DNA of 64,000 bases from an uncultured Gammaproteobacteria bacterium (GTDB lineage Bacteria > Patescibacteriota > Microgenomatia > UBA12405 > JAHJSD01): NCBI GenBank assembly GCA_964428655.1, contig CAYRYE010000002.1:183156-247155 (forward strand). The letters run 5' to 3'. Shown here in pieces: positions 29,355-55,115 of the stretch. The number at the start of each line of letters is the position of its first letter. Position 1 is the stretch's first letter. The position numbers were made by a program, and so were the translations under genes. Below the pieces are notes generated by a model, which was not told the origin of the DNA, did no database searches, and saw nothing but the letters and a program-made list of their open reading frames with translations.

Positions 29355-29377
29355 AAATTCAAAACTCAAAAATCAAA

Positions 29378-30328: not shown

Positions 30329-30352
30329 ACCCCTATTGTGGTAAATTAAAAT

Positions 30353-31255: not shown

Positions 31256-31298
31256 AAAAACTAAAAGTAACAGTTAAAAACTAAAAGTTTTAAAATTC

Positions 31299-31766: not shown

Positions 31767-32439
31767 AATTAAATTAAAACATGAAAGAAATAACTTGTCA
31801 ATTAGAAAAATCGGCAATCTTATAATATAAATCTGTTTTTGAGAATTGACATCAAGTCTGAAAACAATCAAATTAAAAAATAATAAACTTTCCCCTTAGA
31901 AAGTCGATTTTAAATAGATCAGTTTTCTATAGCAAATCATTACAATGTCTGCCAACCAATAGCCTCTAAAATAAATTCTCCTCCTATAATGATTTATTCT
32001 AAGTAATTTTCGTGAAAAACTTCCCTTTTTCACAGACAGTTTTGATGCAAACAATGATGCCAGCAGATCATCTGCGTCCTCAAAACGTCGGAACAGGACC
32101 GAAGGAATCAGCCAAAAACAATCAAATGTGAAATGCCATTGTTCAAGATTCCCGCAGTTTCTCCTTAGTCTTTGCTTCATTAAGCTGTACTAAGTTACAC
32201 AAAGATACTAATCAGTTATTTCCATACTATATCGTGAAAACACTATGAAAAGAAAATCAAGTTATAAGGTCAAGAATCCCCGCAGATTTCCCTTAACAAA
32301 TCTTTCAAAATAACTCGTTCTAAATATATCAAAGGCTATCAAGTTAAGTACTTGACAAGACTTTTATTATAGTGTAATCTGAATTTTGAAGCTATTTTAA
32401 ACTTTATAACTTGTATAACTGGTATAACATTTACCGAAA

Positions 32440-32952
32440 ATGCAATATTTTAAGCTAGAAAGGACATTCCAACTCTACCTTTTAAAAATAAGAAACCTCT
32501 CTCCTAGGAGTGTCAAAAATTATTTATCTGACTTCCGCCAGTTCTGGAAATGGTTGCTAAGTCATTCCTCCCGACTACTTCGGGACGGTGAAACGACTCT
32601 CTCAAAGTGGAGGGAACAAACATTCCAAATCCAATCAATCACTCCCCAACTTTTATCTGACTACAAAAACCATCTTTTAACCAGTAATATCAGCAAATCA
32701 ACTACCAAGAGAAAGCTGGCAACTATTAGAATTTTTTGCCAATTCTGCCTAAATCAAAACTGGATGAAGAAAAACCCTGCTCTGGAATTGGAAAATCCAT
32801 CAAGATTAGGTCCAAAAGAAAAAGAAGTCCATGATCTACTCTCCAAATTCGGCAGTTATTTGAAAACTGAAAATATGAGCAAAAATACAATTAAAAATTA
32901 TATAGCTGATGCAAGACAGTATTTGGTATCTGGTATATCGAAAAATGTCTAG
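32440..32952 (+). CDS. protein with two tandem tyrosine-recombinase N-terminal (SAM-like core-binding) domains and no catalytic domain; possibly the detached N-terminus of the downstream giant gene
   Basis: NLSPRSVKNYLSDFRQFWKWL and NMSKNTIKNYIADARQYLVS match the XerC/D/phage-integrase N-terminal core-binding domain pattern (LSxnTlxaYrrdLxxFxxwL); ends 18 nt before the 2457-aa gene, whose own N-terminus is a bare TM helix. Confidence 0.6.
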   Translation: MQYFKLERTFQLYLLKIRNLSPRSVKNYLSDFRQFWKWLLSHSSRLLRDGETTLSKWREQTFQIQSITPQLLSDYKNHLLTSNISKSTTKRKLATIRIFCQFCLNQNWMKKNPALELENPSRLGPKEKEVHDLLSKFGSYLKTENMSKNTIKNYIADARQYLVSGISKNV

Positions 32953-32969
32953 CGGCCGACAGTAAAACA

Positions 32970-35900
32970 ATGAAATATTCAATTTGCAAAGGACTAAAAA
33001 ATAGTCTCAATATGCTGGCTAATTTCCGCCTGCGGACATTGATTACCATTCTCGCCGTCCTGACTACCTTAACTGGAATTGTTTTATTCCTCAACAAAAA
33101 CCCCCAACTAGCCGAGGCTGCCTGGTACAATGGCGCCTGGACTTACAGAAAAAAACTTACCTTTGACAACTCTGGACAAAGTGAAAATCTAACTAACTTC
33201 CCTACTATGGTCAAGCTGACCAGCACTAATTTTACCTTTAGCCAGGCCCAGTCAAGCGGTCAGGATATTAGATTTACTGATTCTGCAGGCACTAACCTTT
33301 TAGATTATGAAATTGAATCTTTTGACGCATCTGGAGAAGAAGCTTATCTCTGGGTCAAGGTGCCTCAAATAGACGGTTCTTCGGCTACAGACTATATCTA
33401 CATGTACTGGGGCAATCCAAGCGCTTCTGATGCCCAAGACGCTGATGCTACCTGGAACAGCAATTATAAAGGGGTTTGGCATTTGAATGATGATGCCGCG
33501 ACCTCCACTGTTTCTGATTCTTCAGGCAACAGCAACAACATCACCAGCTCAGGCACGACTGACAAATATACCAGCACCGGTCAAATGGGAGGCAGTTTTA
33601 CCACCATGGGCACACCCCAGGTTGTTCCCAATCAGGCTGGTAGTACTTCAGAACTATATCCTTCAATAAAACTTGATTCTAATGATTATCCGGTGATTGC
33701 TTTTTTTGATGACACAGACAATGACTTAATGCTGCTCCATTGCAATGACCCAGATTGTAAAGGCGATGATGAAAGTCTTGAGGTGGTTGAAAGCTCCGGA
33801 AATACTGGCTACTACCCTTCACTTCAATTAGATACCAACGACTACCCTGTCATTGCCTACTGGGATAATACTGGTGATGATTTAAAATTTGTTCATTGTG
33901 ATGATGTTAATTGCACTGGTACAGAAACTCCGGTAAGTCTAGACACGGTGGGCGACACCGGTCGTTGGCCTTCAATGCAATTAGACTCTTCTGGCTATCC
34001 AACCATCGCCTATTTTGACAACAGTAATGATGCCCTTAAACTAATTCATTGTGATGATGCTGATTGTACCAGCTATAACACGGAAACTGTTGATGCCACT
34101 GCCAACAGCGCCTATCTCCACAGCATCTCTCTACAATTAGATGACAATGACTATCCGGTGATTGCTTACTACCACCACACTGCTGATCCTACTCGCAAAG
34201 TAAAAGTAACTCGCTGTAATGATGTTGATTGTGATGGCGTTGGTGAATCAACTGAGTCTCCTGTTGACGGCGCCAACCAATACCGCTATCTTTCTCTTCA
34301 ACTTGATATTACTGACGAATATCCCATGATTACTTATTATGATGAAACCATTGGCGACCTTTTTTATATTCACTGCGATGATGCTAACTGCGCCGGCGTG
34401 GAAACACCAAAAACCCTCACCACCGGTACTGCCCGCCAGCCCTGGATGGAATTAAACAGTTCTGGTATTCCAATCATAATTACTCATTACAGCGTCTACC
34501 CCCGGCTTTTTATCTGTTCTGACGCTGACTGCACTACTGACAGTGAACAATATATTACTCTAAATAACCAATATTACTGTAATTATCCCACTATGGAGTT
34601 GGATAGCAATGACTATCCTGTGTTTGCTTGTTATAGCCGAGGTAAAACAGGCAGTTATGATATCAATCTCTATAGACTTAGTCCTAAGTTAACCCAAAGT
34701 TATGACTCGGACTTTGATTTTGGCACCGGAGATTTTTCTGCTTCAATGTGGTTTAAAAGTGATGACGCTTCACAAAACTTTCTCCTTTCCCGCTATGATG
34801 CTGACCAGGGATATAAACTCTGGCTGGATTATGGCGGTCATCCCTGCTTTGGCATTGATGATGACAGTTCTTTTGGTCCTGATGACAGCGCCTGCACTAC
34901 GCCCGCAAATACAGAAGTTGACATGGACGGACAAGGTGGAACTGTTGAAGAACATGATATGAAATTAAACAGTGTTAATGGCTATCCAGTAATTGCTTTT
35001 TTTGATGAAACTAATGATGATTTAGAAGTTGTCCGCTGCAATGACGCTACCTGCACGAGCACAACTACTACCACTATTGATAGCAGCGGCGATGTTGGCC
35101 GTACTCCCTCTCTTCAACTTGATTCAAATAACTATCCAGTTATTGCTTATCATTATAACACCAGCCAAGATTTAAAAATTGTTCATTGTGGTAGTACTGA
35201 TTGCTCCAGCGGCAATACCATTAACACAGTTGACAGCGGCGGTAATGTTGGCGACTACCCTTCTCTTCAACTAGATACTACTAATGGCTATCCGGTGATT
35301 GCCTACTATGACGCCACTAATACAGCCATAAAACTGGTTCATTGTGATGATGTTAACTGTGATGGTGATGAAAGCGGCAATACTGTTACTGTTGACAACA
35401 CTGAAATCGATTATCCTTATATCAGTGTTACTTGGATGAAGCTTGACACCAATGGTTATCCAGTCATGACTTATCATAATAACACTACCTATGACCTTAA
35501 ACTAGCCCACTGCGACAATGCCGGCTGTACTGGTGATCAAAGCGGCAATATTGTTACCGTAGAAACTTCAGGAACTATTGGCAGATATGCCTCGCTTGAA
35601 CTAGATTCAAATGATTATCCAGTTATTGCAACCCATAGAGCCAGCTCTGATCTTAAGCTCATCCATTGCAGTGATGCTAACTGTACTACTAAAACCAGCA
35701 ACTATGTAGAAGAAAGTACTAATATGGATAAAGGATATTACTATATCGACCTAGAACTTAATGACTCAGGTTACCCAGTAATTCTTCACACTTCTTTAGC
35801 TCATTGGAACCATATTTTGACAATTTGCAATGATGTTAATTGCGCCGGCAGTGATGAAAGCTTCACTCATATCCGCGGCAGCGCATCTGATTATTTATTT

Positions 35901-38900
35901 AGCTCTCTGGAGTTAGATAGCAATGATTATCCGGTAATCAGCTATTATGATAGTGGTAAATTAAACCTGCTCCATGCTACTGCTACTACTTATACTGATA
36001 CAAATGCTTATGATGACGGCAGTTGGCATCATTTAGTCGCTGTCAAAGACGATACTTCTTCCATCAAGTTATATATTGACGGAGCTGAAGTAGCTTCTGA
36101 TACTTCAATTGCCGCTCTTAACACTCTGACCTCTGATTCTGCTGAATTAAGACTAGCAGAGACTATTACTGTTCTTGCTGGCAATGACTACTCTACTTAC
36201 AACTGGAGTGGTGATATTGATGAAGTCCAGATTGATAGTACTGCCCGTTCTGCTGATTGGGTAGCTGCTCAGTATCTAAGTGAAAGTGATGGTTTTATTA
36301 CCTTTGGTACTTTAGAACTTGGCTCCACCGGAGATGGAGAAAAACCAGTTGCGTATTGGTCCTTCGACTCCGGTTACGGAACCGTCGCTCAGGATAAAAC
36401 TACTAATAATATCGATCTTGAGATCACAGGTGCCGCTTGGAGATCAGAAGAAGATTGCTTCTCTGGAAAATGTTTATACTTTGACGGATCTGGAGATTAT
36501 TTAAGAAGTACTGACAGCAACGTAACTACAATAGCTTCTGGAGCAAGCGCTACATATTCTGTTTGGTTTAGAACTGGAGATACAACTACAGAGGCAAATT
36601 ATCCAAATATAATGGGAATTAGGGATACATCTTCGTCACCATATGACATATTTAATTTGCGGCTCTATCAAGAAAGAATTGAAGGGGAAATATATGAAAA
36701 CGATAATAACGACAGCATTCGCTGGACAACAAGCGTTATTGACAATCAATGGCATCATGCTGTTCTAGTTAAAAATGGCAACACTGCCCATCTATACGTT
36801 GATGGTCTTTTAAAAGATTCAGGTACTCGAACTTGGGGAGAAATTTCAGACACTGAATTTCTTATTGGAGCAAGAGAAACCACTGGCGGGTATTTTAAGG
36901 GCTTCATAGATGAGCCAAAAGTCTATGACTATGCTAGAACAGCCGCCCAGGTAAAAACTGACTATATCAGAGGGGCTGGTGCTCATGGAGGCAGTGCGGT
37001 TCTAGGAGCTGAAGATACTTCTTATCTTAATGATGGATTGGTTGGGTATTGGAAATTAGAAGAAACCTCTACTCCAGCTATTGATAGTTCTGGAAATGGG
37101 AATTCGGGAACTTGGACTGGCGATAACATTGATGATACAGCAGGAAAGTTTGGAAACAGTATAAGTCTTGGAGGCACAGATGACTATGTAGATATGGGCG
37201 TAGTAGGACCAGTAGATGGAGCAACAGCTTTAACTGTTTCGGCTTGGGTTAAACCAGACGGCGCTGTTAGCGATAGCATTGTTGACCAATATGGCGATAG
37301 CAGTAGTGCTACCTTTCTTTTTTATACCAACTCCTCCGGTTTAAGAGGGCTTGTTGAAGATAGCAGCAGTAATAGATATTACGGAAGCATATCAGATGCC
37401 GCTCTCGCTGTTGACACATGGCAGCACGTTGTTATGACTTGGGATGCTGATAGTCAAACTATTTATGGCTATGTAAATGGTGAAAAACAAACTAATTCTG
37501 TCTCAGCGCCAATCAGCAGCCTTAGAGGAACTGCTGTCAAAAATCTAGTTATTGGCGGCACCTGGAATGATTTTGCCGGTGAAATTGATGAAGTCCGCGT
37601 ATATCAGCGCGCATTAAGTTCAGCGGAAATCCGCGCGCTATATAACTGGGCTCCGGGGCCTGTTCTCTATTACAGCCTTGATGAACATACAGGAACTTCT
37701 ACAGTTTATGATAGATCGGGTAACGACTATGACGGAACAATGAGTGGTCTATCAGAAAGTAGCTGGGTTTTAGGAAAATATGGTAGTGCATTAAACTTTG
37801 ACGGTAATGACAGTGTTAATATAACTGGTTTTACCAGTACTACAAAAAGCAATACTATTGAAATGTGGGCAAAAAGCTCACTAGGAGATACAACTTATGA
37901 CTACCTACTTGATTCAACTACAGGCAGATTTGTTTTTGCCTGGTTTTCCAGTGTGTCTGGGCAAATTGGTTTTTATGACGGCGCCTGGAAATCATTTGGG
38001 GACACACCAAATGACGGTGAATGGCACCATCTTGCTTTAGTATTAAACAGCAGTACTTCTACTGCCTCATTATATATTGATGGCGTTAAATTTGGCTCAG
38101 ATCAGGCATATACAGACAAGGATATTAGCGGAGATACTTATCTGGCAACCAACTATCTTGGTACTGGTGGTTATTTTAATGGCTCTCTTGACGATGTCCG
38201 TATCTACAACTACGCCCGGACTCCAGGGCAGATTGTGGAGGATATGAATGCGGGCCATCCAATTGGAGGCAGTCCTGTTGGAAGTCAAGTTGGTTATTGG
38301 AAGTTTGATGAGGGATATGGAACAACAGCTTATGATAGTGGACTACATGCTGAAAATGGCACTCTAACTAATTCTCCCACTTGGTCAAACTCTGGCAAAA
38401 TTGGCAAGGCTTTAAGTTTCTCCGATAGCAGTAACGCCACTTACGTAAGCATTCCTGGATCAGGAGAGCTTGAAGATGTAACTGATAATAGCTACTCCTT
38501 TTCTGCTTGGATGAACCCAGCTTCCATTCCTTCTTCTGGCACAAATAATGTTATGACAGCAGTGGGTAGACCAGGATACCATACACTAATTGGATACTAC
38601 TACACTCAGAAAATGATCATGCATGTTCGTAATTCAGATGGTACAGCATTTGCCACAACCTCTTCCAATACCTTCTCTATTGATAATTGGAACCATGTAG
38701 TTGGCGTGGCTGATACCAGTGACAACTCTATAAAAATCTATGTCAATGGAAAATTAGAAGGTACTGGCAGTTGGACTGGAACACTCAGGGATTTCGGAAC
38801 CGGAGAATATAGAATTGGAACTTCGAGGAATGGTTCTTGCTCCGCTGATTGGGCATTTTGTTTCGATGGACTAGTTGATGAGGCAAAAATCTATAACACC

Positions 38901-40343
38901 ACCTTAACCCAAGAAGAAATTCTTATAGACTACAACCAAGGAAAAGCAATGGTTTTGGGAGCATTAAGCACTGATGCTTCTGGAAATGCAGATTTTTCTT
39001 CAGAAAGAGGTTATTGTCCTCCGGGAGATACCACTGCTTCCTGTTCTCCTGTGGGAGAGTGGAAAATGGATGAGAAAACAGGAGTTTATGCTTATGATAC
39101 GAGTGGAAATAACTACACTGGCACCCTTGCTAATTCCCCAACATGGGTACAAGGAAAAGTAGGAGCAGGGCTTGATTTCACCAGAACTTCAAGTCAATAT
39201 GTCTCAACCGCTGATATTGATATCACTAACTCGTTTACACTTGAAGCTTGGGCATATACCACAGACTCAGCTAATCAAAAAGCTATAATCTCTAAAGGAA
39301 CAGGAACTACAACTAACTATTGTTTGGATCTCCGAAGTGCTGATAATTCCATTGGTTTCTTTGTTTATGATAGTGGAGGAGCCGCGCGCGGGCTGACCGG
39401 ATCAACTACAGATAAGTTCCCTACTAACCAATGGACCCATATAGTCGCAGTCTACAACAGCGCCTCAACACCCAACTTTCAAGTTTTTCTAAACGGATCA
39501 GCTATATCCAATACTGCTAACTGGACTGGAACTATGGCTTCAAATGACACTAATACAACTATTGGAGCAAGAGCGACAGGTGATAATTTTTTCGATGGCA
39601 AACTTGACCATGTCAAAATTTATGACTATGCCCGATCTGCATCCCAGATCGCCTGGGATTATAATCGGGGCGGACCGGTGGGATGGTGGAGGTTTGATGA
39701 AAATCAGGAAATGATTGTGTATGATGCTTCAGGAAATGAGAATAATGGGGATCTTGAAGCCTCAATGACAAGTGATGATTGGGTTGAGGGGAAATACAAT
39801 ACTGCTTTGGATTTTGATGGAGGGGATGATTATGTCACCCTCACAAACAACCTCTCCTTAGATTCTGATAACTGGTCAATATCGTGGTGGATGAATAGAA
39901 ATGAACGTGACTATGAGTGTATCTTTTCAAAAGCAATAGGTAGTTTCGCTGGAATGATAGAGGTTGATCATACAAGTTACCCTAATCAAATCAGAGTAGA
40001 ATCTAACACCAATAATGAATGGGTTAAATTTTTTTCAACAAGTATTGATACAACGGATGGTCAGTGGCATCATTATAATCTAGTGTTTGGGCCGAGCAAT
40101 TCGTACCTTTATGTAGATGGTATTCTTACTGATACCGAAACAGCAAATAGCGATTCCGCTGACTATCTAATTAGATACATTGGTGTGCAGCAACAGCAAG
40201 TTACATACATTTATGGTGATTATTTCCAGGGATTATTGGATGATGTTCAAATTTTTAATTATGCCTTAACCCCGTTACAAATTGAAAATTTATATAATCA
40301 GGAATCTGCTATTAGGTTCGGTCCTTCTAGCGGATCACCATAG
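32970..40343 (+). CDS. giant cell-surface protein (2457 aa): N-terminal TM, about 18 tandem 48-aa Cys-containing repeats, then about 8 LamG/concanavalin-A-like lectin domains
   Basis: Repeat unit G..G.YPSLQLDSNDYPVIAYYDxTNxDLKLVHCDDxNCTG recurs from aa 220 to 1000; LamG_3-like cores (DGSWHHLVAVKDDTSSIKLYIDGA, NQWHHAVLVKNGNTAHLYVDG, GEWHHLALVLNSSTSTASLYIDG, DNWNHVVGVADTSDNSIKIYVNG, NQWTHIVAVYNSASTPNFQVFLNG, GQWHHYNLVFGPSNSYLYVDG). Confidence 0.9.
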   Translation: MKYSICKGLKNSLNMLANFRLRTLITILAVLTTLTGIVLFLNKNPQLAEAAWYNGAWTYRKKLTFDNSGQSENLTNFPTMVKLTSTNFTFSQAQSSGQDIRFTDSAGTNLLDYEIESFDASGEEAYLWVKVPQIDGSSATDYIYMYWGNPSASDAQDADATWNSNYKGVWHLNDDAATSTVSDSSGNSNNITSSGTTDKYTSTGQMGGSFTTMGTPQVVPNQAGSTSELYPSIKLDSNDYPVIAFFDDTDNDLMLLHCNDPDCKGDDESLEVVESSGNTGYYPSLQLDTNDYPVIAYWDNTGDDLKFVHCDDVNCTGTETPVSLDTVGDTGRWPSMQLDSSGYPTIAYFDNSNDALKLIHCDDADCTSYNTETVDATANSAYLHSISLQLDDNDYPVIAYYHHTADPTRKVKVTRCNDVDCDGVGESTESPVDGANQYRYLSLQLDITDEYPMITYYDETIGDLFYIHCDDANCAGVETPKTLTTGTARQPWMELNSSGIPIIITHYSVYPRLFICSDADCTTDSEQYITLNNQYYCNYPTMELDSNDYPVFACYSRGKTGSYDINLYRLSPKLTQSYDSDFDFGTGDFSASMWFKSDDASQNFLLSRYDADQGYKLWLDYGGHPCFGIDDDSSFGPDDSACTTPANTEVDMDGQGGTVEEHDMKLNSVNGYPVIAFFDETNDDLEVVRCNDATCTSTTTTTIDSSGDVGRTPSLQLDSNNYPVIAYHYNTSQDLKIVHCGSTDCSSGNTINTVDSGGNVGDYPSLQLDTTNGYPVIAYYDATNTAIKLVHCDDVNCDGDESGNTVTVDNTEIDYPYISVTWMKLDTNGYPVMTYHNNTTYDLKLAHCDNAGCTGDQSGNIVTVETSGTIGRYASLELDSNDYPVIATHRASSDLKLIHCSDANCTTKTSNYVEESTNMDKGYYYIDLELNDSGYPVILHTSLAHWNHILTICNDVNCAGSDESFTHIRGSASDYLFSSLELDSNDYPVISYYDSGKLNLLHATATTYTDTNAYDDGSWHHLVAVKDDTSSIKLYIDGAEVASDTSIAALNTLTSDSAELRLAETITVLAGNDYSTYNWSGDIDEVQIDSTARSADWVAAQYLSESDGFITFGTLELGSTGDGEKPVAYWSFDSGYGTVAQDKTTNNIDLEITGAAWRSEEDCFSGKCLYFDGSGDYLRSTDSNVTTIASGASATYSVWFRTGDTTTEANYPNIMGIRDTSSSPYDIFNLRLYQERIEGEIYENDNNDSIRWTTSVIDNQWHHAVLVKNGNTAHLYVDGLLKDSGTRTWGEISDTEFLIGARETTGGYFKGFIDEPKVYDYARTAAQVKTDYIRGAGAHGGSAVLGAEDTSYLNDGLVGYWKLEETSTPAIDSSGNGNSGTWTGDNIDDTAGKFGNSISLGGTDDYVDMGVVGPVDGATALTVSAWVKPDGAVSDSIVDQYGDSSSATFLFYTNSSGLRGLVEDSSSNRYYGSISDAALAVDTWQHVVMTWDADSQTIYGYVNGEKQTNSVSAPISSLRGTAVKNLVIGGTWNDFAGEIDEVRVYQRALSSAEIRALYNWAPGPVLYYSLDEHTGTSTVYDRSGNDYDGTMSGLSESSWVLGKYGSALNFDGNDSVNITGFTSTTKSNTIEMWAKSSLGDTTYDYLLDSTTGRFVFAWFSSVSGQIGFYDGAWKSFGDTPNDGEWHHLALVLNSSTSTASLYIDGVKFGSDQAYTDKDISGDTYLATNYLGTGGYFNGSLDDVRIYNYARTPGQIVEDMNAGHPIGGSPVGSQVGYWKFDEGYGTTAYDSGLHAENGTLTNSPTWSNSGKIGKALSFSDSSNATYVSIPGSGELEDVTDNSYSFSAWMNPASIPSSGTNNVMTAVGRPGYHTLIGYYYTQKMIMHVRNSDGTAFATTSSNTFSIDNWNHVVGVADTSDNSIKIYVNGKLEGTGSWTGTLRDFGTGEYRIGTSRNGSCSADWAFCFDGLVDEAKIYNTTLTQEEILIDYNQGKAMVLGALSTDASGNADFSSERGYCPPGDTTASCSPVGEWKMDEKTGVYAYDTSGNNYTGTLANSPTWVQGKVGAGLDFTRTSSQYVSTADIDITNSFTLEAWAYTTDSANQKAIISKGTGTTTNYCLDLRSADNSIGFFVYDSGGAARGLTGSTTDKFPTNQWTHIVAVYNSASTPNFQVFLNGSAISNTANWTGTMASNDTNTTIGARATGDNFFDGKLDHVKIYDYARSASQIAWDYNRGGPVGWWRFDENQEMIVYDASGNENNGDLEASMTSDDWVEGKYNTALDFDGGDDYVTLTNNLSLDSDNWSISWWMNRNERDYECIFSKAIGSFAGMIEVDHTSYPNQIRVESNTNNEWVKFFSTSIDTTDGQWHHYNLVFGPSNSYLYVDGILTDTETANSDSADYLIRYIGVQQQQVTYIYGDYFQGLLDDVQIFNYALTPLQIENLYNQESAIRFGPSSGSP

Positions 40344-40366
40344 TCAGTAATTAGTAAACAGTAAGT

Positions 40367-46300: not shown

Positions 46301-49300
46301 GGAGCCGCAGGGTACGACTCAAACATTTATTTCAAAGAAGCTGATACAAAAGAAATGAGAATTAGTTGGGATGCTTCGGAAAACGAGTTAGCATTTGTGG
46401 ATGAAACAGATAGTGCTGCGAGAAGAATGGTTATAGAACAAACCGGCAACGTGGGGATTGGGACGACGGGGCCCACTTCCCTACTTCACCTGGCCTCTAC
46501 TTCTACATCTACCGGCTTTACTGGTTTTAATCTGGATTGGTCGCCTGGTTCTGCTGCCACTCTTACCGGTGATCTGTTTGCTATCAACATTGGCAGTAAT
46601 GGTAATGCTGATAATTTATTTAATGTGTTAGATAATAGTTCCTCTTTATTCTCTGTCTCAGAAACCCAGATAACCTCTGCTCTTCCCCATCAATTTACAT
46701 CTACAGGAGATGTGTCAATAGCTTACGACATAATTTTTACTAACCAAACCGCTTCTTATATAAAATCTTATGCTCCTTTATATATTGATGCTGGAGAATC
46801 TTTTGAAAGCAATGATCTGACTTTATCTACTTATAATGCCGGAGATATTGTTTTTGACGCCGGTGATGCCAGCGGCGATACAGGAACAATTAAATTTTAT
46901 GATGCTTATGTTAAGGGAGCAACTGATACGACACCAATTGCTTTTTCTGATGTGGCCGCTGATATTAATACTTTCAGAACAAATTACACTGATGAAAATA
47001 TTATTGGCGCTTTTAATGAAGTCTATGATGCGGCTACCGGCTCTGTTGGTGGTGGCGGTCCCTGGACTCGCTCTGGAACTGATACTTATCTTACTAATAC
47101 TGGAGATAACGTCGGTATCGGAACGACGGATCCAGACAATAAACTAGACATCAGTGGGACATTGGAAGTTGGTACTAGTACTAGAGGAGCTCTCTTATAT
47201 TCTACTGCCGCAGATAATTTTAGATTCCACACCTATACTAATACCCCCAATCCAAATATTCGGATTGGATATGGTAATGGATCAGGTGGACAAGATACTT
47301 CAAGTGAATATATTGATATGAATGCAGGAGAGATAAATTTCATAAATGCCGACGTCGGGATTGGGATAGCGACTCCGGATGAACCTTTAGAAATTTATAG
47401 ATCAAATGATCCCACTGCAGGTACTACATATTTAAAAATAACAAATCCTTCAAGTGGAAATTGGAAGACTGGAGAAGCAGCAACAGGTATACGGTTCGAA
47501 AAGGAAGGGAAAATTACAGGATATATTGAATCCGCGCACTTCCGTACCGGCAGTGGAGCGGATCATAGTAACGAGGATGCTGGACTTGCCTTCGGTACAA
47601 GACACAGCCATGATTTAGATCCAACTACCAAGATGGTAATCGATAATTATGGCAACGTAGGAATTGGGACAACGACGCCGGGAGCTAAGCTAGACATCCT
47701 ATCGACCGGCGAACAACTAAGAACTAGCTATAACTCCAGCAATTACACTCAGTTTGAAACCGACAGCGATGGCGACTTAAATATCACCCTCAACGGGGGT
47801 GGAAGTGATAAAAGAGTAATCATTAGTAATGATCTGCAAATTAATGGTGGAGATATTGTTGACAGCAGCGGTACTACAAGAATCAGCATCGGCAATGTAA
47901 TCTCTCTTTATCCTGACTCCTCCAATTTAGTCCGAGTTATCAACACCAGTGGATCACCAGCCAGTAGATATTTGCCATTAAGACTAACTCGCTCATATTC
48001 TAGTTTCAGCACAAGTTATGAGGTTGGGATACAGTTTGACATCCAAGAAAACACCACTGTCATGCCGGCAGGATTTATTAGCAGTAAAATTACAGACTCT
48101 ACAAATGAGTATGGCAAAATGTTTCTCGCCACTTCAGATGGAACTGGCGATACTGATTGGGAAATAGGGATAACCATAGACCACTTGGGCAACGTCGGGA
48201 TTGGGACGACGAATCCAACAGAAAAACTTCATGTTGTTGGAGATGGCTACTTTACCGCCGATGTAGGTATTGGAACTGCTGTCAACGCCACTTATGACCT
48301 ATCGGTTGGATCACATATAAGAACGGTCTCGGGCAACATTTACTCTGGAGGAACCCAAGGATTTGTGTTCGGGAGTTCTACTAGTGAAGGAGAATATATT
48401 TATAGATCCGGCAATGATATTCGAACATATGCAGGAGGAGCTAATGTACTCACTGTTGATGGAGATAACGGAAGAGTCGGGATTGGGACGACGGGGCCGG
48501 AAATGACATTAGATGTTTATGGAGGTGTTGGTACTGGTATTATAGTTGGGGATCATGCAGTGAGACAGCCATATATTAGACGCTCTCTACATAGCCCAAG
48601 TGATGTGACATATAGTTTTTATGGTTACACTGATGCTGGGATGTATATGCCTGAAGCTAACAAATTAGCTTTCGCTGTAAATGGTGGAGAAAGAATTACA
48701 CTAGACAGTGGCGGCAACGTCGGGATTGGGACGACGAGTCCGCTAGGGCAACTTGATGTTGTTGGTGGTGTAACCAGAACCGGAACCGCACCAACAACCC
48801 CATCTTTTTACGTAACTGGTACATTAAGTGCTGGTACAGCAGGACCCGCAGCCAATAACATAGAGTTCAGACACGATAATCAAACCCAAGGAATAGGTTT
48901 TGGGTATCAGACAATCTACGCAACAGGAACAACTACCAATCAACCATTAAATTTGTTGTCGAGAGGATCAAGCCCAATAACATTAAACGCGTACGGGTAC
49001 AGCACCGGCAACGTCGGGATTGGGACGGCGGGGCCGTTGTCAAAACTTAGCGTCGGCGGAGCTGGCATATCTAACACCGGCGTGTATGGCTACGGCACCA
49101 GCTACGGCGTGTATGGCGGCGGCGGCACCTACGGCGTGTATGGCAGTGGCACAGGCTACGGTGTGCGAGCAATGGGCGGTACCTACGGCTTGTATGGCAG
49201 CGGCACAAGCTACGGCGCATATGGCGCGGGCGATACCTCCGGCGTGTATGGCGACGGCGGTACCTACGGCGTGTATGGCGACGGAACCACTGGCGTGCGT

Positions 49301-51916
49301 GGCGACGGCACCTACGGCGTGTATGGCTACGGCACCAGCCAGGGTGTGTATGGCACCACCTCCACTGGACAAGGTGTACGTGGCAATAGCACTAGCGGCT
49401 GGGCAGGATATTTTGATCAAAAAACTTATGTTGCTGATTACCTACGAGCTGATGGTGGATTAACCACTAACAGTACCGATCCAGGAGCAGGTAATATTAG
49501 GGCGTCTGGAAGCTTAACATTAACAGCTGCTAATCCCTATATCTACAGTGGCAGTTCATATATTATAATTCCAAATGGTCTTTTTGTCAGTGGAGGCACT
49601 CCTTATTTTACTAATGACATTAAGGCTAGGGGAGGCATTAGTGATGATGGTGGAAATTTATATTTAAATGATACTGTTGTTGTCAATGGTAATGATGGTG
49701 GTACTAATTTATATATTAACGCTATTGATGCAAACGAAGGTGGCCAAATAGCACTGCAACCTGGATCAAGTTATTCAAGTGATGTGTTTTACCTTGACAA
49801 TGTTCAGGGATTCCCTCGCATCTATCAAAGTAGTAGCAATACTAGAACAATGCAGATTGCCAATTACGGTACTGGAATACTTAACTTGAATGTAGAAGGA
49901 ACATCGACCGACTTTGCTGAAATGATACATACTGATGAAAGGTTGGAAAGTGGAGATCTAGTTGTGAGTCACGAAAGTCAAGAAGTAACAGTGAGATTAG
50001 CAGATGATGCCTACTCGCCAAATATTACCGGCATCATTTCAACTAGACCGGGAATTTTATTATCAAGTCTTGACAAGGCTAATGATACCAGTACTTCAAT
50101 TGGTACAGTAGGTAAGGCAGTAATATTTGATAAATACGCCCCGCTGACTGTTTCTGGGAGAGTACCACTCAAGGTTAGTTCTTCAAGTGGGTATATCTCT
50201 AATAGTGATCCTGTTACTTCGTCTTCACTTGCTGGTTTTGGTATGAAAGCCACTCAAGCCGGCCCTATTGTTGGAAAGGCACTGGAGTCAACAGGTCACT
50301 GGAATGATACAAATTGTCCAGCAATTGCTTCTGTTGACTCTATCACATGGCCTGAAGATGATGGAAATAATCCTGCGAAACCCTGCTTTAAACTTCCTGA
50401 TGGTACTTACATAGGCAAGATAATAGTACTTGTGAATCTCAGCTGGTATGACCCGGATGTTTATCTAACAGATACGGGAGATTTAAATATTACCCAAAAC
50501 AACAACGGAGATCTTATTTTAAAGAATAAAGATAGTTTAGTTGATAAAATTGGTGCTTTTACAGAACTGGTTGTAGCTAAAGTTAAGGCCGGACTAGTGG
50601 AAACAAAAGAATTAACAGCAGAGAATAAAATCATCTCACCGTTGATTGAAACAGAAGAAATAGTAATTAGTGATCAGGAATTAGTAATTAGTAATCAAGA
50701 GGGAGAGGATTTAATTGAAATCGATAGCGATGGGGCAACAACCCATTTTGGTGATTTGATAGTTGAAGGTGATGCTGGATTCAGCGGCAATGTGGGCATT
50801 GGCCATCTTACAGCAGAAGAAATTGACACGAATACACTTGAAAGCAAAGCGATTAGCACAGATCAAATGCAAATTAACACGGATGCAACCGTTTCCGGCA
50901 CATTGTACGCTGATCAGATTGTGACTAGGAAAGGCACCTTTGGCGAATTGATGGCTGATAAGATTAGCGCTATTAGGGTGGAGTTAGAAGAGTTGCTAGC
51001 TAACAAAATTGCTAATTATGATAGCGGGGTGGAAAAGGATGACACTGGAGCTTTGGATACTGTTACTGGCACTTCCCTTGCTTCTCAGGCTGAGGAATGG
51101 GAGACAGATCCACCGTCCGATTCCTCCACCGCATCCACTCCTGGAGAGTCTGCTGGGTTGTCATCTGCTGGGTTGTCAGATGAAATAATTATCGCCTCCA
51201 GTTTAGTAATTCAGGGAAAAATGACAGTGGAAGAAGCGTTTATTAACAAACATTTGCTAGTCGGCAATATTGCCATTACTAAAAACTCCATTGCTACTTT
51301 GGCTGATACCCTTTACATCCAGCCAAGTGGAACAGGCAAAGTTGATATTTTAGCTGGAATTTTGGTAATTGAGGATAATGGCAGTGTGACGATTAATGGA
51401 GACTTGTTTGTGAATGGCAGTGTAATCGCAGAGGAATATCAAGGAAAGGACGGGGATTTTGCGATTAATTTAGCTGGAGAGTCTGCTAGTGGTTTCGGCA
51501 AATTAATGGTCAAGGGAATTGATAACGAGGTGGTAACCAGCATTGATGCCAGCGGGTCGGCGCAATTCGCCGGAGACTTAATTGCTTCAGGCTCGGCTAC
51601 TTTTGCTAAAGTCAATATTGCTACGGCATCGGCCGAACCAATTATTGCTGGCTCGCAATTTGGCGATTTGGCCACTGACTCAGCCAAACTAAAAACTAAT
51701 GCCACGGCTGGTGAAGGAATAATTCCGACTGGAAAAAAAGAAGTAATTATTTACAGTGATAAATTAACTTCAGAATCGCTGGTTTACATTACTCCAACAA
51801 CAGATACTGAAAATCAGGTGTTGTTTGTCAAGCAAAAAGCAAGCGATCATTTCACTGTGGCCATAAAAGAAGAATTAAACAAAGAAATACGATTCAACTA
51901 TTGGATTATTAACTAA
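40367..51916 (+). CDS. giant cell-surface protein (3849 aa): cytoplasmic integrase-SAM-like N-domain, TM helix, about 21 GNVGIGTTxP-type repeats (tail-fibre-like), Gly-Tyr repeat region, C-terminal conserved domain
   Basis: N-terminus IRHYLETLRVQGKSEATIRRKAIALKKFAEWA (recombinase core-binding-like) then IGIGIGIIGG and TM FGAIAIMTVALGLFIY; GNVGIGTT(G/N/D)P recurs about every 80-100 aa with near-identical DNA core ggcaacgtcgggattgggacgacggggcc; C-terminal 70 aa shared with 51920..53062. Confidence 0.9.
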   Translation: MDLNKLLQLNQIRHYLETLRVQGKSEATIRRKAIALKKFAEWAATKEQSRIGIGIGIIGGTKPKTFKEQVSHKILNTKYQILNTLSSVPAYFKFGAIAIMTVALGLFIYDQFIKKAPEQLAYPSTLTAPSRVLSFQGRLTDDQDTPITDSTNFVFKLWKVEENGTEVDCDGGGDEDCLWESNTCGINPDEDGIFSVRLGATSGSDACGGAIDSSVFTENIGIWLEVTVASETLDPRQPIATSAYALNAETLQGFPPGTGTSNILYIDSSGNIGIGVTSPTLDATSSSGTFAIKGQSLLLQTPNTSDGDIGINPDGEGVLDLIFDGSAPSSSYTSNGIGGFVTATNSNITSGAMYFGEVASVATGYDFIQFMSGSTPTEKFSVDASGHTYIAGNVGIGTTNPNNFKLQVDGNVGPQTDSDYDLGSDTIRWANVYADNLIGTISPGFSEGSVIFADSLGDLTEDNANFFWNDTDDRLGIGTTEPGAKLHTYRNDTIGTWGAMTLSNATALFQDSGVNLYVDGNTLVTSGDLYLGTSTASDIFFGTNDAYTVTFKSGGDVGIGTTEPSALLSVGSTSQFQVNSSGAIAAATGITSSGTITFSDLSTNGPTYVATGVMNSEQYLDMTRGGTDADLSGVAEGGLIYKAASALAGTGALTGMLKGNTASAPSAVTSTADYVTYWSDANTITGEQYLSVSRGGSGIGTFTKGVLLSPGGTTAFTTVAGINNYIPKWSSSYITTTSSIYDDGDVGIGTTGPGQKLTVQDDNSDSIPTDQDLEVGQIQIQNLDASAVFAGLSFRARTTNRAMGLIGLDWASGAGDIFFRIRDGSLTSKEVMRLESTGNVGIGTTDPQALLSVGSTSQFQVNSTGAIAAATGITSSGTITFSGLTANRLVTTTTGGQLTNSITSANVDDSVTNNTGSGLLVFATSPIFTTDITTPQILSSADLTIDPAGENVNLGSGDNLNITASTDLFFGTTSLGEITGPTDSGAYVVGTNDEFSNSDEVNVQGVLDDLDAHIESLETGGSGLWIDDGLYIYPINFTDFVITDAGNVGIGTTGPDSPLEISGSGAQQLKITSTDHISSAVVLERTDNDYYDWRMMNSGGNLFFSESIDEGASWLDNVFFGGDPTYHGRVGIGTTAPDEELTVSIAQNESTLIKVTNSTNDTLAAAGFYFDSATSNGIFAALPSNYTGGGTGAHFADRVGFTAYDTAAGLDVVAIDTNADIRFYTGGLAISNERIRIESGGNVGIGTTGPNAQFEVRGSGLEARLTDDGTGYYADLGVDSSGNLTISTSNGALNLEPTANQNLNITTSGTGDVAVNTNQLYVDSSSGYIGIGTTGPLVKLNVSQDQVTSISQAQFMITGATDTNKRTLIGYNTTNNYGWMGAGTLDSQWDPLVLQPISGNVGIGTTNPGAKLEVAGQVKITGGSPGADKVLTSNVSGLATWETIGGEGVTPDSLDYTEFVDAMTVDDNTSINLYSGTTDVDLRYYNSSSSDELLFLDGSTGYVGIGTTGPGARLDIHNDASTGVPLNVMSRAGSADNGELQIGFINNDGGQSWRMGTASDRNFYITEDDAGGYGTSRLTLEEGGNVGIGTTNPSATLHVAGNTLTTGNTYIGATTGDQYFWSDSAGRIATMADFYVQATSSNTYLYSAITYLGAASGDNILFRANEVYGDSWRISSTTGAYHAGSSTEYVYNRFGSGGTANFASDDASDVYVQDELEVDGSICLGGVCESTFLDFGPWDYNSGANTVHPDSTSYNVGIGTTSAGTAKLAVIGGNVGIGTTGPGYKLDVNAGTDNEITRFISTDDSARILVTDEDTTTYLGSSNGYTYLGGGAGLLAQNLVINTTTGNVGIGTTDPKAELHVMGTSGTIPSLFSGTNLVVSNTEAAGNNTNISILGGAEGDTAIMFGDTADEDAGAVSYDHNTDYMSFRVNAGTKMTIDDSGNVGIGTTGPGMPLHLTKASNDLVEFESTNSWMGLHLTGAAGYDSNIYFKEADTKEMRISWDASENELAFVDETDSAARRMVIEQTGNVGIGTTGPTSLLHLASTSTSTGFTGFNLDWSPGSAATLTGDLFAINIGSNGNADNLFNVLDNSSSLFSVSETQITSALPHQFTSTGDVSIAYDIIFTNQTASYIKSYAPLYIDAGESFESNDLTLSTYNAGDIVFDAGDASGDTGTIKFYDAYVKGATDTTPIAFSDVAADINTFRTNYTDENIIGAFNEVYDAATGSVGGGGPWTRSGTDTYLTNTGDNVGIGTTDPDNKLDISGTLEVGTSTRGALLYSTAADNFRFHTYTNTPNPNIRIGYGNGSGGQDTSSEYIDMNAGEINFINADVGIGIATPDEPLEIYRSNDPTAGTTYLKITNPSSGNWKTGEAATGIRFEKEGKITGYIESAHFRTGSGADHSNEDAGLAFGTRHSHDLDPTTKMVIDNYGNVGIGTTTPGAKLDILSTGEQLRTSYNSSNYTQFETDSDGDLNITLNGGGSDKRVIISNDLQINGGDIVDSSGTTRISIGNVISLYPDSSNLVRVINTSGSPASRYLPLRLTRSYSSFSTSYEVGIQFDIQENTTVMPAGFISSKITDSTNEYGKMFLATSDGTGDTDWEIGITIDHLGNVGIGTTNPTEKLHVVGDGYFTADVGIGTAVNATYDLSVGSHIRTVSGNIYSGGTQGFVFGSSTSEGEYIYRSGNDIRTYAGGANVLTVDGDNGRVGIGTTGPEMTLDVYGGVGTGIIVGDHAVRQPYIRRSLHSPSDVTYSFYGYTDAGMYMPEANKLAFAVNGGERITLDSGGNVGIGTTSPLGQLDVVGGVTRTGTAPTTPSFYVTGTLSAGTAGPAANNIEFRHDNQTQGIGFGYQTIYATGTTTNQPLNLLSRGSSPITLNAYGYSTGNVGIGTAGPLSKLSVGGAGISNTGVYGYGTSYGVYGGGGTYGVYGSGTGYGVRAMGGTYGLYGSGTSYGAYGAGDTSGVYGDGGTYGVYGDGTTGVRGDGTYGVYGYGTSQGVYGTTSTGQGVRGNSTSGWAGYFDQKTYVADYLRADGGLTTNSTDPGAGNIRASGSLTLTAANPYIYSGSSYIIIPNGLFVSGGTPYFTNDIKARGGISDDGGNLYLNDTVVVNGNDGGTNLYINAIDANEGGQIALQPGSSYSSDVFYLDNVQGFPRIYQSSSNTRTMQIANYGTGILNLNVEGTSTDFAEMIHTDERLESGDLVVSHESQEVTVRLADDAYSPNITGIISTRPGILLSSLDKANDTSTSIGTVGKAVIFDKYAPLTVSGRVPLKVSSSSGYISNSDPVTSSSLAGFGMKATQAGPIVGKALESTGHWNDTNCPAIASVDSITWPEDDGNNPAKPCFKLPDGTYIGKIIVLVNLSWYDPDVYLTDTGDLNITQNNNGDLILKNKDSLVDKIGAFTELVVAKVKAGLVETKELTAENKIISPLIETEEIVISDQELVISNQEGEDLIEIDSDGATTHFGDLIVEGDAGFSGNVGIGHLTAEEIDTNTLESKAISTDQMQINTDATVSGTLYADQIVTRKGTFGELMADKISAIRVELEELLANKIANYDSGVEKDDTGALDTVTGTSLASQAEEWETDPPSDSSTASTPGESAGLSSAGLSDEIIIASSLVIQGKMTVEEAFINKHLLVGNIAITKNSIATLADTLYIQPSGTGKVDILAGILVIEDNGSVTINGDLFVNGSVIAEEYQGKDGDFAINLAGESASGFGKLMVKGIDNEVVTSIDASGSAQFAGDLIASGSATFAKVNIATASAEPIIAGSQFGDLATDSAKLKTNATAGEGIIPTGKKEVIIYSDKLTSESLVYITPTTDTENQVLFVKQKASDHFTVAIKEELNKEIRFNYWIIN
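41536..49035 (+). repeat. intragenic array of about 21 near-identical 25-30 nt cores (ggcaacgtcgggattgggacgacgggg) within about 250-300 bp protein repeats
   Basis: Direct reading: cores at about 41540, 42590, 42880, 43500, 43740, 44090, 44350, 44560, 44870, 45115, 45690, 45900, 46190, 46440, 47100, 47340, 47650, 48190, 48470, 48710, 49010. Confidence 0.85.
49060..49400 (+). repeat. GC-rich tandem repeat (ggcacctacggcgtgtatggc-type, 21-24 nt period) encoding (G-x-Y-G)n Gly/Tyr-rich segment
   Basis: Protein segment GVYGYGTSYGVYGGGGTYGVYGSGTGYGVRAMGGTYGLYGSGTSYGAYG...; produces artefactual ORFs on both strands (49020..49463, 49040..49420). Confidence 0.85.
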
Positions 51917-51919
51917 CAA

Positions 51920-53062
51920 ATGAAAATCCTACATATTAAACTAATCTGGTTTTTGCCGATTTTGGCGGGAGGGGTTATTGGGGGAATATTAACCTCGAAC
52001 CAGCGGTCCAACACATCCATCCTTAGTCCCATTATCCCACCGTCCGAAGATGTCCGTGGGCCAAATTTGGACAAGACAACCTCAGAGGAAGAGCTCGCCT
52101 CGGAAAAGGGATCCCTGCAGCAGCAAATTCTCACCTCCCAGTCGCTTTTGGCCAAAGCAATTGAAATTTCAAAAGAAAAAGATAGCGCCCAAAACCAAAG
52201 AATTGTTCAATTAATTAATGAGGCGATTACTACTATTAATCAAGCTATCGGTCAATATCCCAGTGATCACCGAGCTTGGGCCCAAAGAGCCAAGATTTAT
52301 CAAACAATTAAAGGTTATATGCCTGAAGCAGAAAAAGTGGCTATTGGCGATTGGCAGAGAGCAATCAAACTGGACCCTAATAACAGCGATTACTACCAAT
52401 CATTAGCTAGTATCTATCAGGTTAATGGAATCAAGATAGCCATTTTTTATTTGCAAAAAGCAGTTGAGACTAATCCAACTGATCCTAATTTACTCAAACA
52501 ATTAGCTGAATATCAAACAAGGGCAGGAATGCTGAGCCAAGCCAGAACAAGCTACCAACAAATTTTGGCTATTTTAATTGATCAAGAACAAAGAGAAGTA
52601 ATTAAAAAAGAAATCAAGGGTTTAGAACGTTTAATAGTTCAGGCGGGAATTGAGTCCGATGCGGCCACTCCGGAAAGGTCTATTCCGTTCGAGGAGTCTA
52701 CCATTACTCTCCCCGAGTCGCCGCCCCTGCTAGAAGCTAGGCATTTAGCCAGTAATACTATTATTGCCGCTCCCGTCTCACCATCCCAACATACATCGGG
52801 AGGAGAGACTATCTCAAGTGCTCTATCAGGGATGGCGATTTTACCAACTGGTGAAACAGAGGTTAAAATTTGCAATGAAAATCTCTCCCCTAATACACAA
52901 GTATACTTAGTTTCAGAAGGAGAAGATGAAAATCAAGTCTTAATAGTTAAAAGAAAAGTGCCGTTTGATCCAGAGACCAATGAATGCAGCCACTTTGTAG
53001 CCGCTATTCAAAAACCCTTGAACCAAGATTTGAAATTCAGATGGTGGCTGATAGAAAATTGA
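51920..53062 (+). CDS. N-terminally anchored TPR-repeat protein with C-terminal domain shared with the 3849-aa protein
   Basis: N-terminal TM LIWFLPILAGGVIGGILT; TPR-like helices (AWAQRAKIYQTIKGY, YYQSLASIYQVNG, LLKQLAEYQTRAG); C-terminus PTGETEVKICNENLSPNTQVYLVSEGEDENQVLIVKRKV...FVAAIQKPLNQDLKFRWWLIEN aligns with PTGKKEVIIYSDKLTSESLVYITPTTDTENQVLFVKQKA...FTVAIKEELNKEIRFNYWIIN. Confidence 0.75.
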   Translation: MKILHIKLIWFLPILAGGVIGGILTSNQRSNTSILSPIIPPSEDVRGPNLDKTTSEEELASEKGSLQQQILTSQSLLAKAIEISKEKDSAQNQRIVQLINEAITTINQAIGQYPSDHRAWAQRAKIYQTIKGYMPEAEKVAIGDWQRAIKLDPNNSDYYQSLASIYQVNGIKIAIFYLQKAVETNPTDPNLLKQLAEYQTRAGMLSQARTSYQQILAILIDQEQREVIKKEIKGLERLIVQAGIESDAATPERSIPFEESTITLPESPPLLEARHLASNTIIAAPVSPSQHTSGGETISSALSGMAILPTGETEVKICNENLSPNTQVYLVSEGEDENQVLIVKRKVPFDPETNECSHFVAAIQKPLNQDLKFRWWLIEN

Positions 53063-55066: not shown

Positions 55067-55115
55067 AGTTATTACTATGTATATTCTCCATGATCAATTG
55101 TCAAGAGTCAAGAGG

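Follow-up and report, generated by a model that had tools for sequence, protein, structure and literature searches.

Closest described systems

The core-binding (CB, or SAM-like) domains of tyrosine recombinases such as XerC/XerD, XerA and lambda Int (PF02899, PF13495, PF13102) belong to the same superfamily as the protein modules described here, which lie in a 64,000 nucleotide (nt) stretch of DNA from an uncultured bacterium (contig CAYRYE010000002.1, positions 183,156 to 247,155 of the forward strand; hereafter the window). Four open reading frames (ORFs) on the + strand make up the locus, with the coordinates and lengths that a preliminary description of the same DNA had given them. They are a 170 amino acid (aa) ORF (32440-32952), termed the small protein; a 2457 aa ORF (32970-40343), giant 1; a 3849 aa ORF (40367-51916), giant 2; and a 380 aa ORF for a TPR protein (51920-53062), which begins 3 nt past giant 2. 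The whole analysis is one of metagenome-derived sequence and of prediction. Unlike XerC/XerD-type recombinases, the locus is without a catalytic domain, and the CB domain occurs in 1.5 copies in the small protein and as a half-copy in a membrane protein, giant 2. One CB domain is here split over two genes, and recombination is not expected. Very probably the small gene and giant 2 are a functional gene pair that shares this split domain.

Recombinase folds are also found in repressors, namely MrpR/YopR of SPbeta and SroF of phi3T (PMC10516654, PMC8612738, bioRxiv 10.1101/2025.11.27.690993). These are soluble phage proteins that retain both domains of the recombinase fold, whereas the present locus holds CB units only, attached to or putatively docked on a giant membrane protein and encoded by a cellular chromosome. 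A second likeness is to regulators of the ToxR/TcpP/CadC type, in which an N-terminal cytoplasmic DNA-binding-type domain is followed by one transmembrane (TM) helix and an extracytoplasmic part, the order predicted for giant 2. The promoter targets of ToxR are tandem direct repeats, and a tandem repeat array stands at the start of the operon here. However, the outer part of the ToxR type is a small sensor domain and here it is a 3700 aa fibre, and Pfam gave no match to an OmpR/PhoB-type winged helix (Trans_reg_C or another winged helix-turn-helix family) in the locus proteins. In SigI/RsgI systems the gene for a small DNA-directed factor of the cytoplasm lies directly before that of a single-pass membrane protein, RsgI, which binds the factor with a short cytoplasmic segment at its N-terminus and carries carbohydrate-binding modules on its outer part. 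The domains are unrelated to those of the present locus, where the interaction would be the completion of a split domain and where the existence of fused relatives speaks for a complex that is constitutive and not releasable. The resemblance to ToxR and to sigma/anti-sigma pairs is analogy only, as the defining domains are absent.

The outer part of giant 2 is similar to phage tail fibres and to the mosaic adhesive trimer (MAT) fibres of Bdellovibrio. One of the latter, Bd2133, is a trimeric surface adhesin that was expressed as residues 21-1031, without a cytoplasmic head (PMC10769870). Giant 2 differs from Bd2133 in being three to four times longer and in having an N-terminal TM anchor and a cytoplasmic CB half-domain. 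Peptidase_S74, the chaperone domain of S74-type MAT fibres, is present in one relative of giant 2 (P0048), while Pfam gave no Peptidase_S74 match in giant 2 itself. Split DnaE inteins, in which one fold is encoded by two genes and function needs non-covalent reassembly, offer a further parallel, in that fused and split versions coexist in related genomes. No splicing chemistry is involved here, however; the split would dock one protein on another, and reassembly is what the complementary halves suggest.

In the literature searched, the coverage of which is incomplete, no report was found of giant surface proteins with a cytoplasmic head of CB domains, or of two genes that share one CB domain, in line with the impression of the preliminary description that the architecture had not been described. 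The module is as such a new variant made of known parts, and would be categorically new if a link from fibre to DNA, discussed below, is real. Candidate phyla radiation (CPR) bacteria, or Patescibacteria, account for much of the diversity of bacteria; few have been cultured, and they are believed to live attached to hosts. Contact with the host would be a foremost candidate role for the giant surface proteins of this group. To our knowledge, nothing is known about a link from these proteins to the cell interior.

Three hairpins in the small protein

The small protein is cytoplasmic and basic (pI 10.0, net charge +16) and consists of 1.5 recombinase-type CB domains. In Pfam it scores 48.8, 46.6 and 39.3 bits against Phage_int_SAM_5, _1 and _4, all above the gathering thresholds. 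Residues 10-122 align to positions 3-96 of the TIGR02225 profile (E 1.6e-13), which is the N-terminal ~95 residues of XerD/XerC. Matches to the NCBIfam XerC/D families span profile positions ~2-98 alone and reach 50 bits, compared with cut-offs of ~330. The catalytic domain PF00589 (Phage_integrase; R-K-H-R-H/W-Y) gave no match at E<=1 in the small protein or in either giant in the Pfam search, and none was found in the small protein with NCBIfam, as the preliminary description had proposed for this ORF. Because the catalytic domain was sought and is absent, the small protein and the giants are not tyrosine recombinases. The name 'site-specific integrase', under which such ORFs are found in databases, is misleading and can now be corrected.

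Eleven homologues of 149-170 aa align end to end and reveal three helix-turn-helix hairpin repeats. The first and third share the signature S..TIKNYLSD...F..W, and the second reads ST.KRRLa..R.F.qF...NP. Judged by sequence, each type of hairpin corresponds to one half of a CB domain, hairpins 1 and 3 to helices A-B and hairpin 2 to helices C-D, and XerD presumably carries both signatures as well. A four-helix bundle made from two helical hairpins, as in the CB superfamily, is found here. The architecture is AB-CD-AB', one whole CB domain followed by an orphan first half. The preliminary description had seen two domains in this ORF; both the alignment and the AlphaFold2 (AF2) model instead give three hairpins, or 1.5 domains.

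Hairpin AB (32464-32562, +), the first half of CB domain 1, covers residues 9-41 with the pattern S..T.KNYLSD...F..W, scores 64.6 bits with the hairpin hidden Markov model (HMM), has AF2 helices at 3-17 and 22-46, and contains invariant N27, Y28, D31 and W38. The second half, hairpin CD (32647-32778, +; residues 70-113; STtKRkLatiR.F.qF...NP), scores 88.9 bits, with AF2 helices at 69-81 and 86-105 and invariant T88, R91, F99 and F102. The orphan hairpin AB' (32830-32931, +; residues 131-164; SKNTIKNYIAD) scores 71.4 bits and has AF2 helices at 125-143 and 148-168; the small protein holds no second half for it. In the CB superfamily DNA is bound by helices B and D; K, N and R residues are conserved at the start of the second helices in the small-protein alignment, which together with the basic pI is an indirect hint of such binding. 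The family on which the hairpin HMMs were trained is also the one that they were used to search.

The head of giant 2

The half-domain that AB' lacks is found at the start of giant 2. Hairpin CD' (40373-40513, +; residues 3-49, IRHYLETLRVQGKSEATIRRKAIALKKFAEWA), predicted to be cytoplasmic, scores 53.7 bits with the head HMM, and residues 8-45 match PF02899 at profile positions 44-81 of 83 alone. The N-terminus by itself scores 25.7-26.9 bits against this family (cut-off 22.3), the whole protein 18.6 bits. The head had previously been likened to the recombinase core-binding domain; it does consist of genuine CB sequence, yet only of the second half of the domain. In an alignment of 27 related giants the consensus of the head is i..Y...L...glS..TIKRRLSSLRKF..WA...GYL..NPF. 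There is no space for an A-B hairpin in the giant heads, because the C-D-type hairpin begins within the first 5-15 residues.

The two orphan hairpins complement each other in profile searches. By itself, AB' (small protein residues 127-170) covers positions 1-31 of 85 in PF13495 and 3-28 of 83 in PF02899 (12.8 bits), and CD' (giant-2 residues 1-52) covers positions 44-81 of PF02899 (26.9 bits). Joined in silico, AB' and CD' give a single PF02899 match over positions 3-81 of 83 with 37.5 bits (E 2.9e-9), about the sum of the separate scores, and also cover positions 1-83 of 85 in PF13495. The split point is the long, variable B-C loop.

Behind the head, giant 2 has the (IG)n stretch and the one TM helix noted before: RIGIGIGIIGG at residues 50-60 and a single helix at residues ~90-109 (40634-40693, +; YFKFGAIAIMTVALGLFIY; hydropathy 1.9), predicted with the N-terminus inside. 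The TM detection used was crude. Placing the head on the cytoplasmic side of this helix, as the preliminary description did and as the positive-inside rule and the nature of the ectodomain also suggest, is based on three features: no N-terminal signal peptide is predicted for giant 2, the giant heads are strongly basic (median pI ~10), and K+R are enriched before the TM helix (mean 2.39 per 15 residues before it, 1.45 after it; 82 versus 27 proteins, n=132 family-wide). A CD-hairpin HMM built on the small proteins missed the heads of the window and of its closest relative, locus L001, and was rebuilt from 27 giant heads.

Gene pairs and fusions in related genomes

One genome per species was scanned, which gave 252 relatives of the small protein; 80 loci were retrieved, and the hairpin HMMs were run against all of their ORFs. 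ORF starts in these loci were picked mechanically. The relatives come from Microgenomates-class metagenome-assembled genomes (MAGs), for example of Roizman-, Woese-, Shapiro-, Gottesman- and Amesbacteria, and a separate small gene is found in 73 Microgenomates (CPR) loci. In more than 70 loci it is a free-standing ORF of 149-190 aa that ends right past hairpin 3, at 27-55% identity and with varying gaps to the next gene. By HMM, a long same-strand ORF with a lone CD hairpin and a TM helix follows downstream in 48 of the 56 loci that have at least 1.5 kb of downstream sequence, and a CD'-headed giant follows on the same strand in 24 of the 27 loci with at least 8 kb. The three missed by the HMM (L039, L070, L083) have diverged CD-like heads when read by eye. 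The 61 CD-only ORFs run without exception in the direction of the small gene. The median gap from the small gene to the CD'-headed giant is 188 nt. It exceeds 5 kb in five loci, the window and L001 included, and in these two a headless LamG giant fills the gap. A group of 'AB-CD' small proteins without a third hairpin and without headed giants had been considered, and was dropped once the head HMM had been applied and the C-terminal tails read; the small proteins scored as 'AB-CD' carry a degenerate third hairpin (L.EY...L...glD...I...l.D.EEFl).

Natural fusions provide the second line of evidence. L050 (1157 aa), L061, L066 and L077 (3536 aa) encode AB-CD-AB-CD, linker, TM helix and giant in a single polypeptide, and in L066 and L077 the fusion continues with the ectodomain start of giant 2 (...AYPS.LT.P.R.LSFQGRLTD). 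The second domain of the fusions covers PF02899 positions 2-83 in L066, 4-81 in L077 and 3-81 in L050. None of 10 fused-head loci has a separate small gene. The reverse test started from the giants. Upstream of the orphan-CD' giants P0016, P0035, P0110, P0018 and P0120 a same-strand SAM-like ORF of 157-173 aa was found in all five cases, and upstream of P0048 (AB-CD-AB-CD), P0114 (AB-CD) and the headless P0030 in none of three. At the P0114 locus the flanking synteny with Big_1 is retained. Fusion together with mutual exclusivity, a Rosetta-stone type of evidence, therefore points to a functional and probably physical pairing. By these comparisons the 170 aa ORF is a conserved trans partner of the 3849 aa giant. 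The preliminary description had kept a trans-acting partner as its fallback, and that idea is borne out, although the partner is the 3849 aa giant, as the complementary half-domain and the natural fusions indicate, and not the 2457 aa protein.

Extent of the family and variety of heads

A word-indexed homology search with giant-2 residues 1-130 returned nothing, not even giant 2, and was superseded by an exhaustive phmmer search of residues 1-200 against 1.84 billion representatives. This found 504 proteins at E<=1e-3, of which 295 reach E<=1e-10, with lengths of up to 7697 aa. The survey of relatives that had been suggested earlier places at least 500 clusters at 50% identity in the giant family, so that the architecture is no isolated case, and defines a widespread family of tail-fibre-like giants with cytoplasmic recombinase-type CB modules. 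In many genomes one CB module is divided between the giant and a small partner, beside a conserved DNA repeat array.

Among the best 150 family representatives, 59 have a head of CD only, 52 of AB-CD and 22 of AB-CD-AB-CD; 9 have other hairpin combinations and 8 no hairpin. A TM helix follows the head in nearly all of the 150, and the LSFQGRL motif is present in most. Many 'AB-CD' heads are preceded by an unrelated helical extension of ~90 aa, and no hairpin signature was detectable in this extension in P0082, P0103, P0126, P0073, P0019 and P0147. A strict rule of always four hairpins was dropped, as AB-CD-only heads and heads with the ~90 aa extension exist. A scan of 2.9 million viral contigs gave just 3 weak first-domain matches, so that a phage origin was rejected and the module is cellular.

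Two variations in individual members were noted. P0035, a headed giant (5631 aa; L085 4001-20896), has Pfam Intein_splicing/Hint matches, so that an intein may lie inside this surface-protein gene. In L061 (9956-11345) and L062 (6371-8151) long collagen-like G-x-y runs (GATGPTGATGATG...) replace the LSFQGRLTD start after the TM helix.

The two giants

Giant 2 is built, in order, of the CD' head, a linker, the TM helix, the 'LSFQGRLTD' ectodomain start, Gly/Thr/Ser-rich repeats and a conserved C-terminal domain. The ectodomain has no Pfam family match; it does match PHROG tail-fibre families (phrog_9942, 1e-59; phrog_18345, 3e-46) and the beta-helix region of Bd2133 from Bdellovibrio (PDB 8ond, 1.7e-12; also 8ojn, 6e-4). 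Of the ~3700 aa of repeats that the preliminary description assigned to it, internal repeats were detected, but over 2072 of the 3849 residues. The C-terminal domain of ~80 aa (51674-51913, +) is common to the product of the next gene, the TPR protein (34% identity between the two C-termini, E 4e-19, BLASTP), and at least 20 headed giants of related loci end precisely with this domain.

Giant 1 begins with an N-terminal signal-anchor (~20 residues and then a TM helix, in agreement with the earlier observation of a start with a TM helix), followed by DUF2341 and 8 Laminin_G_3 domains (Pfam), and has no CB head. Five stretches match the NCBIfam 'TafC family fimbrial protein' (E 8e-50, 170 bits, below the 410-bit cut-off). 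The giant-1 type (DUF2341/LamG) is headless wherever it was seen in relatives and is usually not adjacent to the small gene; most loci have no such gene between the small gene and the headed giant. On this comparison giant 1 is an accessory surface protein of the locus and not the partner of the small protein.

Sequence element upstream of the small gene

Three tandem 9 bp repeats, TATAACTTG TATAACTGG TATAACATT (32405-32431, +), end 9 nt before the ATG of the small gene. They share the core TATAAY and start ~45 nt past a -35-like TTGACA (32352-32357, +), which is followed after 17 nt by TAATCT (32375-32380), a -10 of the TAnnnT type. Just 5' of the hexamer is a box, ATATATCAAAGGCTATCAAG ('TATATCAAA..TATCAA'; 32324-32343, +). 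By eye, L001 and L004-L010 show the TATATCAAA..TATCAA box at a matching relative position, and Roizmanbacteria-type loci show it as 'aactatatca'. The sequence 'ctcTTGACA' is kept upstream of the small gene in most of 72 loci, the assignment as a promoter being made by reading; a consensus promoter scanner made no call at the TTGACA site, because the -10 is non-canonical.

Among the matches listed, the array is the only one of its kind in the 64 kb window: both matches overlap 32405-32431 (expected 0.06). At least two tandem TATAAY at a spacing of 8-10, in the 500 nt before the first hairpin codon, are present in 61 of 82 loci, and the strict triple repeat in 31 of 83. Only 16 TATAAY clusters were found elsewhere in 2.06 Mb, an enrichment of ~190-fold before the first hairpin-coding gene. 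Of the TATAAY matches elsewhere in the loci, the cases inspected are Ile-rich TM-coding stretches with TTATAA periodicity and were rejected as not the same element. The array is also found 5' of the fused-head genes in L066 and L077. The repeat and the first codons (..YNLYNL..) overlap in genes of the Roizmanbacteria type, which argues for conservation at the nucleic-acid level. Rfam gave no match in the upstream region. Lying just past the likely start site, the array is a candidate operator, sigma-dependent pause site or 5' untranslated region (UTR) signal.

The same syntax of box, TTGACA and repeat was seen in L001, L004-L012, L036, L055, L064-L066, L069, L071, L074, L077, L079, L081 and L082. 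Separately, a tiny ORF of 38-40 codons lies between the repeat region and the small gene in L084 (3194-3310) and L085 (2724-2846), and by eye a hydrophobic peptide has the same position in the upstream regions of L002, L042, L054 and L059. This ORF or peptide is preceded by 'ttgcgg..aat', sometimes inside an inverted repeat, GCGGT-N11-ACCGC. In the window this tiny ORF is absent.

Proposed mechanism

The explanation that we favour is that AB' of the small protein and CD' of giant 2, whose genes look co-transcribed, would reassemble in trans into a second CB domain, and that this would dock the small protein on the cytoplasmic tail of giant 2. The docked complex would then equal the fused forms, with two tandem CB domains, a TM helix and a fibre. 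Physical complementation of AB' and CD' is likely given how the two halves complete one profile, and docking by the split domain, the core of this explanation, is fairly likely as well. The locus would then be a natural example of domain fission with fragment complementation.

What the docked complex would do is a more tentative matter. The docked CB domains may keep the ancestral nucleic-acid binding, which is proposed because of their charge, the retained recombinase-type polar and basic residues, and the precedents of MrpR/YopR and SroF; this is possible, though on balance we would not expect it. The best candidate target would be the triple TATAAY repeat, and binding of the CB domains to these repeats seems unlikely at present. 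A membrane-tethered (ToxR-like) or sequestration-type (anti-sigma-like) link could in that case connect a host-contact fibre with expression of its own operon. In its fullest form, a trimeric host-contact fibre would span the membrane of an ultra-small episymbiotic bacterium and recruit the small protein, and the resulting array of CB domains at the inner face of the membrane would bind the three TATAAY repeats at the promoter of its own operon, a chain of events that we regard as distinctly unlikely. If true, it would amount to a direct physical link from surface fibre to DNA, with ToxR- or Notch-like logic, recombinase parts and fragment complementation. Two short peptides and a 30 bp DNA would make a cheap test system for whether surface fibres signal or tether to DNA.

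Several points weigh against this proposal. Isolated CB domains bind DNA weakly, and many proteins of CPR bacteria have a basic pI. Position alone ties the repeat array to the proteins, and a pause site or 5' UTR element is equally possible. Because head configurations vary (CD; AB-CD; AB-CD-AB-CD; ~90 aa helical extension plus AB-CD), 'two CB domains' is not a universal requirement. Finally, a simple release-type (anti-sigma-like) mechanism fits poorly with the fused forms, unless proteolysis takes part.

Alternative explanations

As to function, the strongest competitor is a module that acts purely as a protein-protein scaffold: docking would be real, nucleic-acid binding would be lost, and the module would serve as a cytoplasmic clamp for N-in topology, in co-translational targeting, in assembly of the trimeric fibre or in linking fibres to another structure of the cytoplasm. 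The combinatorial use of the hairpins (one, two or four, or other helical extensions) fits an interaction scaffold, the split falls exactly at the long variable B-C loop, and the genes, being translationally adjacent, would be well placed for capture during translation. Such a scaffold would leave aside that the exposed basic and polar residues of the CB signature (K26, N27, Y28, T88, R91) are invariant or nearly so, that the heads are very basic, and that a conserved DNA repeat array goes with the module, although none of these is decisive. We give this explanation a modest chance, below even odds by a good way.

It is quite improbable that the small protein instead acts on the operon in its own right, as a soluble DNA-binding regulator or a Xer accessory factor, and does not touch the giant. 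Such a role would leave unexplained the complementary half-domains at the end of the small protein and the start of the giant, the restriction of the small gene to orphan-CD' giants (five of five versus none of three) and the natural one-polypeptide fusions. It would nonetheless agree with the position of the small gene, first in the operon and behind the -35-like box and repeat array, and with a basic protein that holds a complete CB domain; recombinase-fold repressors do exist (PMC10516654).

The preliminary description preferred to see the 170 aa ORF as the head of giant 1, detached by a recent frameshift, a nonsense mutation or an assembly error at 32940-32970. The two genes are on the same strand and close together, with 17 nt, not the 18 nt previously given, between the stop and the ATG of the 2457 aa gene, and they are in different frames. 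A single frameshift in 32907-32952 would join them, the last stop in the giant-1 frame being 21 codons before its ATG. However, that frame holds stops within the small gene as well, the stop of the small ORF is identical in independent assemblies, and its end is kept in the more than 70 loci where it stands free. The giant-1 orthologue in L001 is headless, with a start of its own 130 nt past the small gene, and in most loci it is the CD'-headed giant that comes next. Fusions involve orthologues of giant 2, with the 'LSFQGRLTD' start, and never DUF2341/LamG proteins, and a fusion to giant 1 would give an odd number of hairpins. Contradicted by these comparisons, the detached-head reading is very improbable and gives way to the pairing with giant 2.

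In P0162 and P0165, near-identical products from the Logan assemblies, the TAG stops at 32950-32952 and 40341-40343 are read as Gln, adding 7 residues to each up to the next stop. This is probably a code choice of the gene caller; the genes are still unfused, and the window ORFs are intact under the standard code.

Decaying integrase or prophage remnants beside tail-fibre genes, as could be imagined from a SAM-like domain typical of phage integrases, a tail-fibre-like giant 2 and the integrase names in databases, have a negligible probability given the lack of any catalytic-domain remnant (Pfam, NCBIfam), a three-hairpin architecture kept in 252 genomes, the near absence of viral-contig matches noted above and stable synteny with non-phage genes (Big_1, TPR).

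Neighbouring genes and the window

The 380 aa protein has a hydrophobic N-terminal segment and then TPR repeats (Pfam TPR families), and its C-terminal domain, the one it has in common with giant 2, covers residues ~281-378 (window 52760-53059). In L004, L005, L007 and L008 the orthologue of this gene is directly 3' of the small gene, so that the gene order of the locus is evidently shuffled among close relatives.

The window has a G+C content of ~40% and a gene content typical of CPR, with numerous proteins without a Pfam family in addition to Big_1, dockerin, LamG and TPR proteins. The 'uncultured Gammaproteobacteria' titles of many of the MAGs that hold relatives of the small protein look like mislabels. 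Upstream of the module are two or three + strand proteins of ~300-490 aa without a Pfam family, followed by a - strand Big_1-domain protein, which in the window is at 31299-31871. This upstream synteny is kept between the window (27921-31871), L001 (5311-9190), L084 (2-2372) and L090 (224-1613), suggesting a larger conserved surface-structure locus. Downstream, at 53078-56528 on the - strand, are a membrane protein with Wzy_C (O-antigen-ligase-like) and TPR, and a dockerin type I protein, a domain unusual in a CPR genome.

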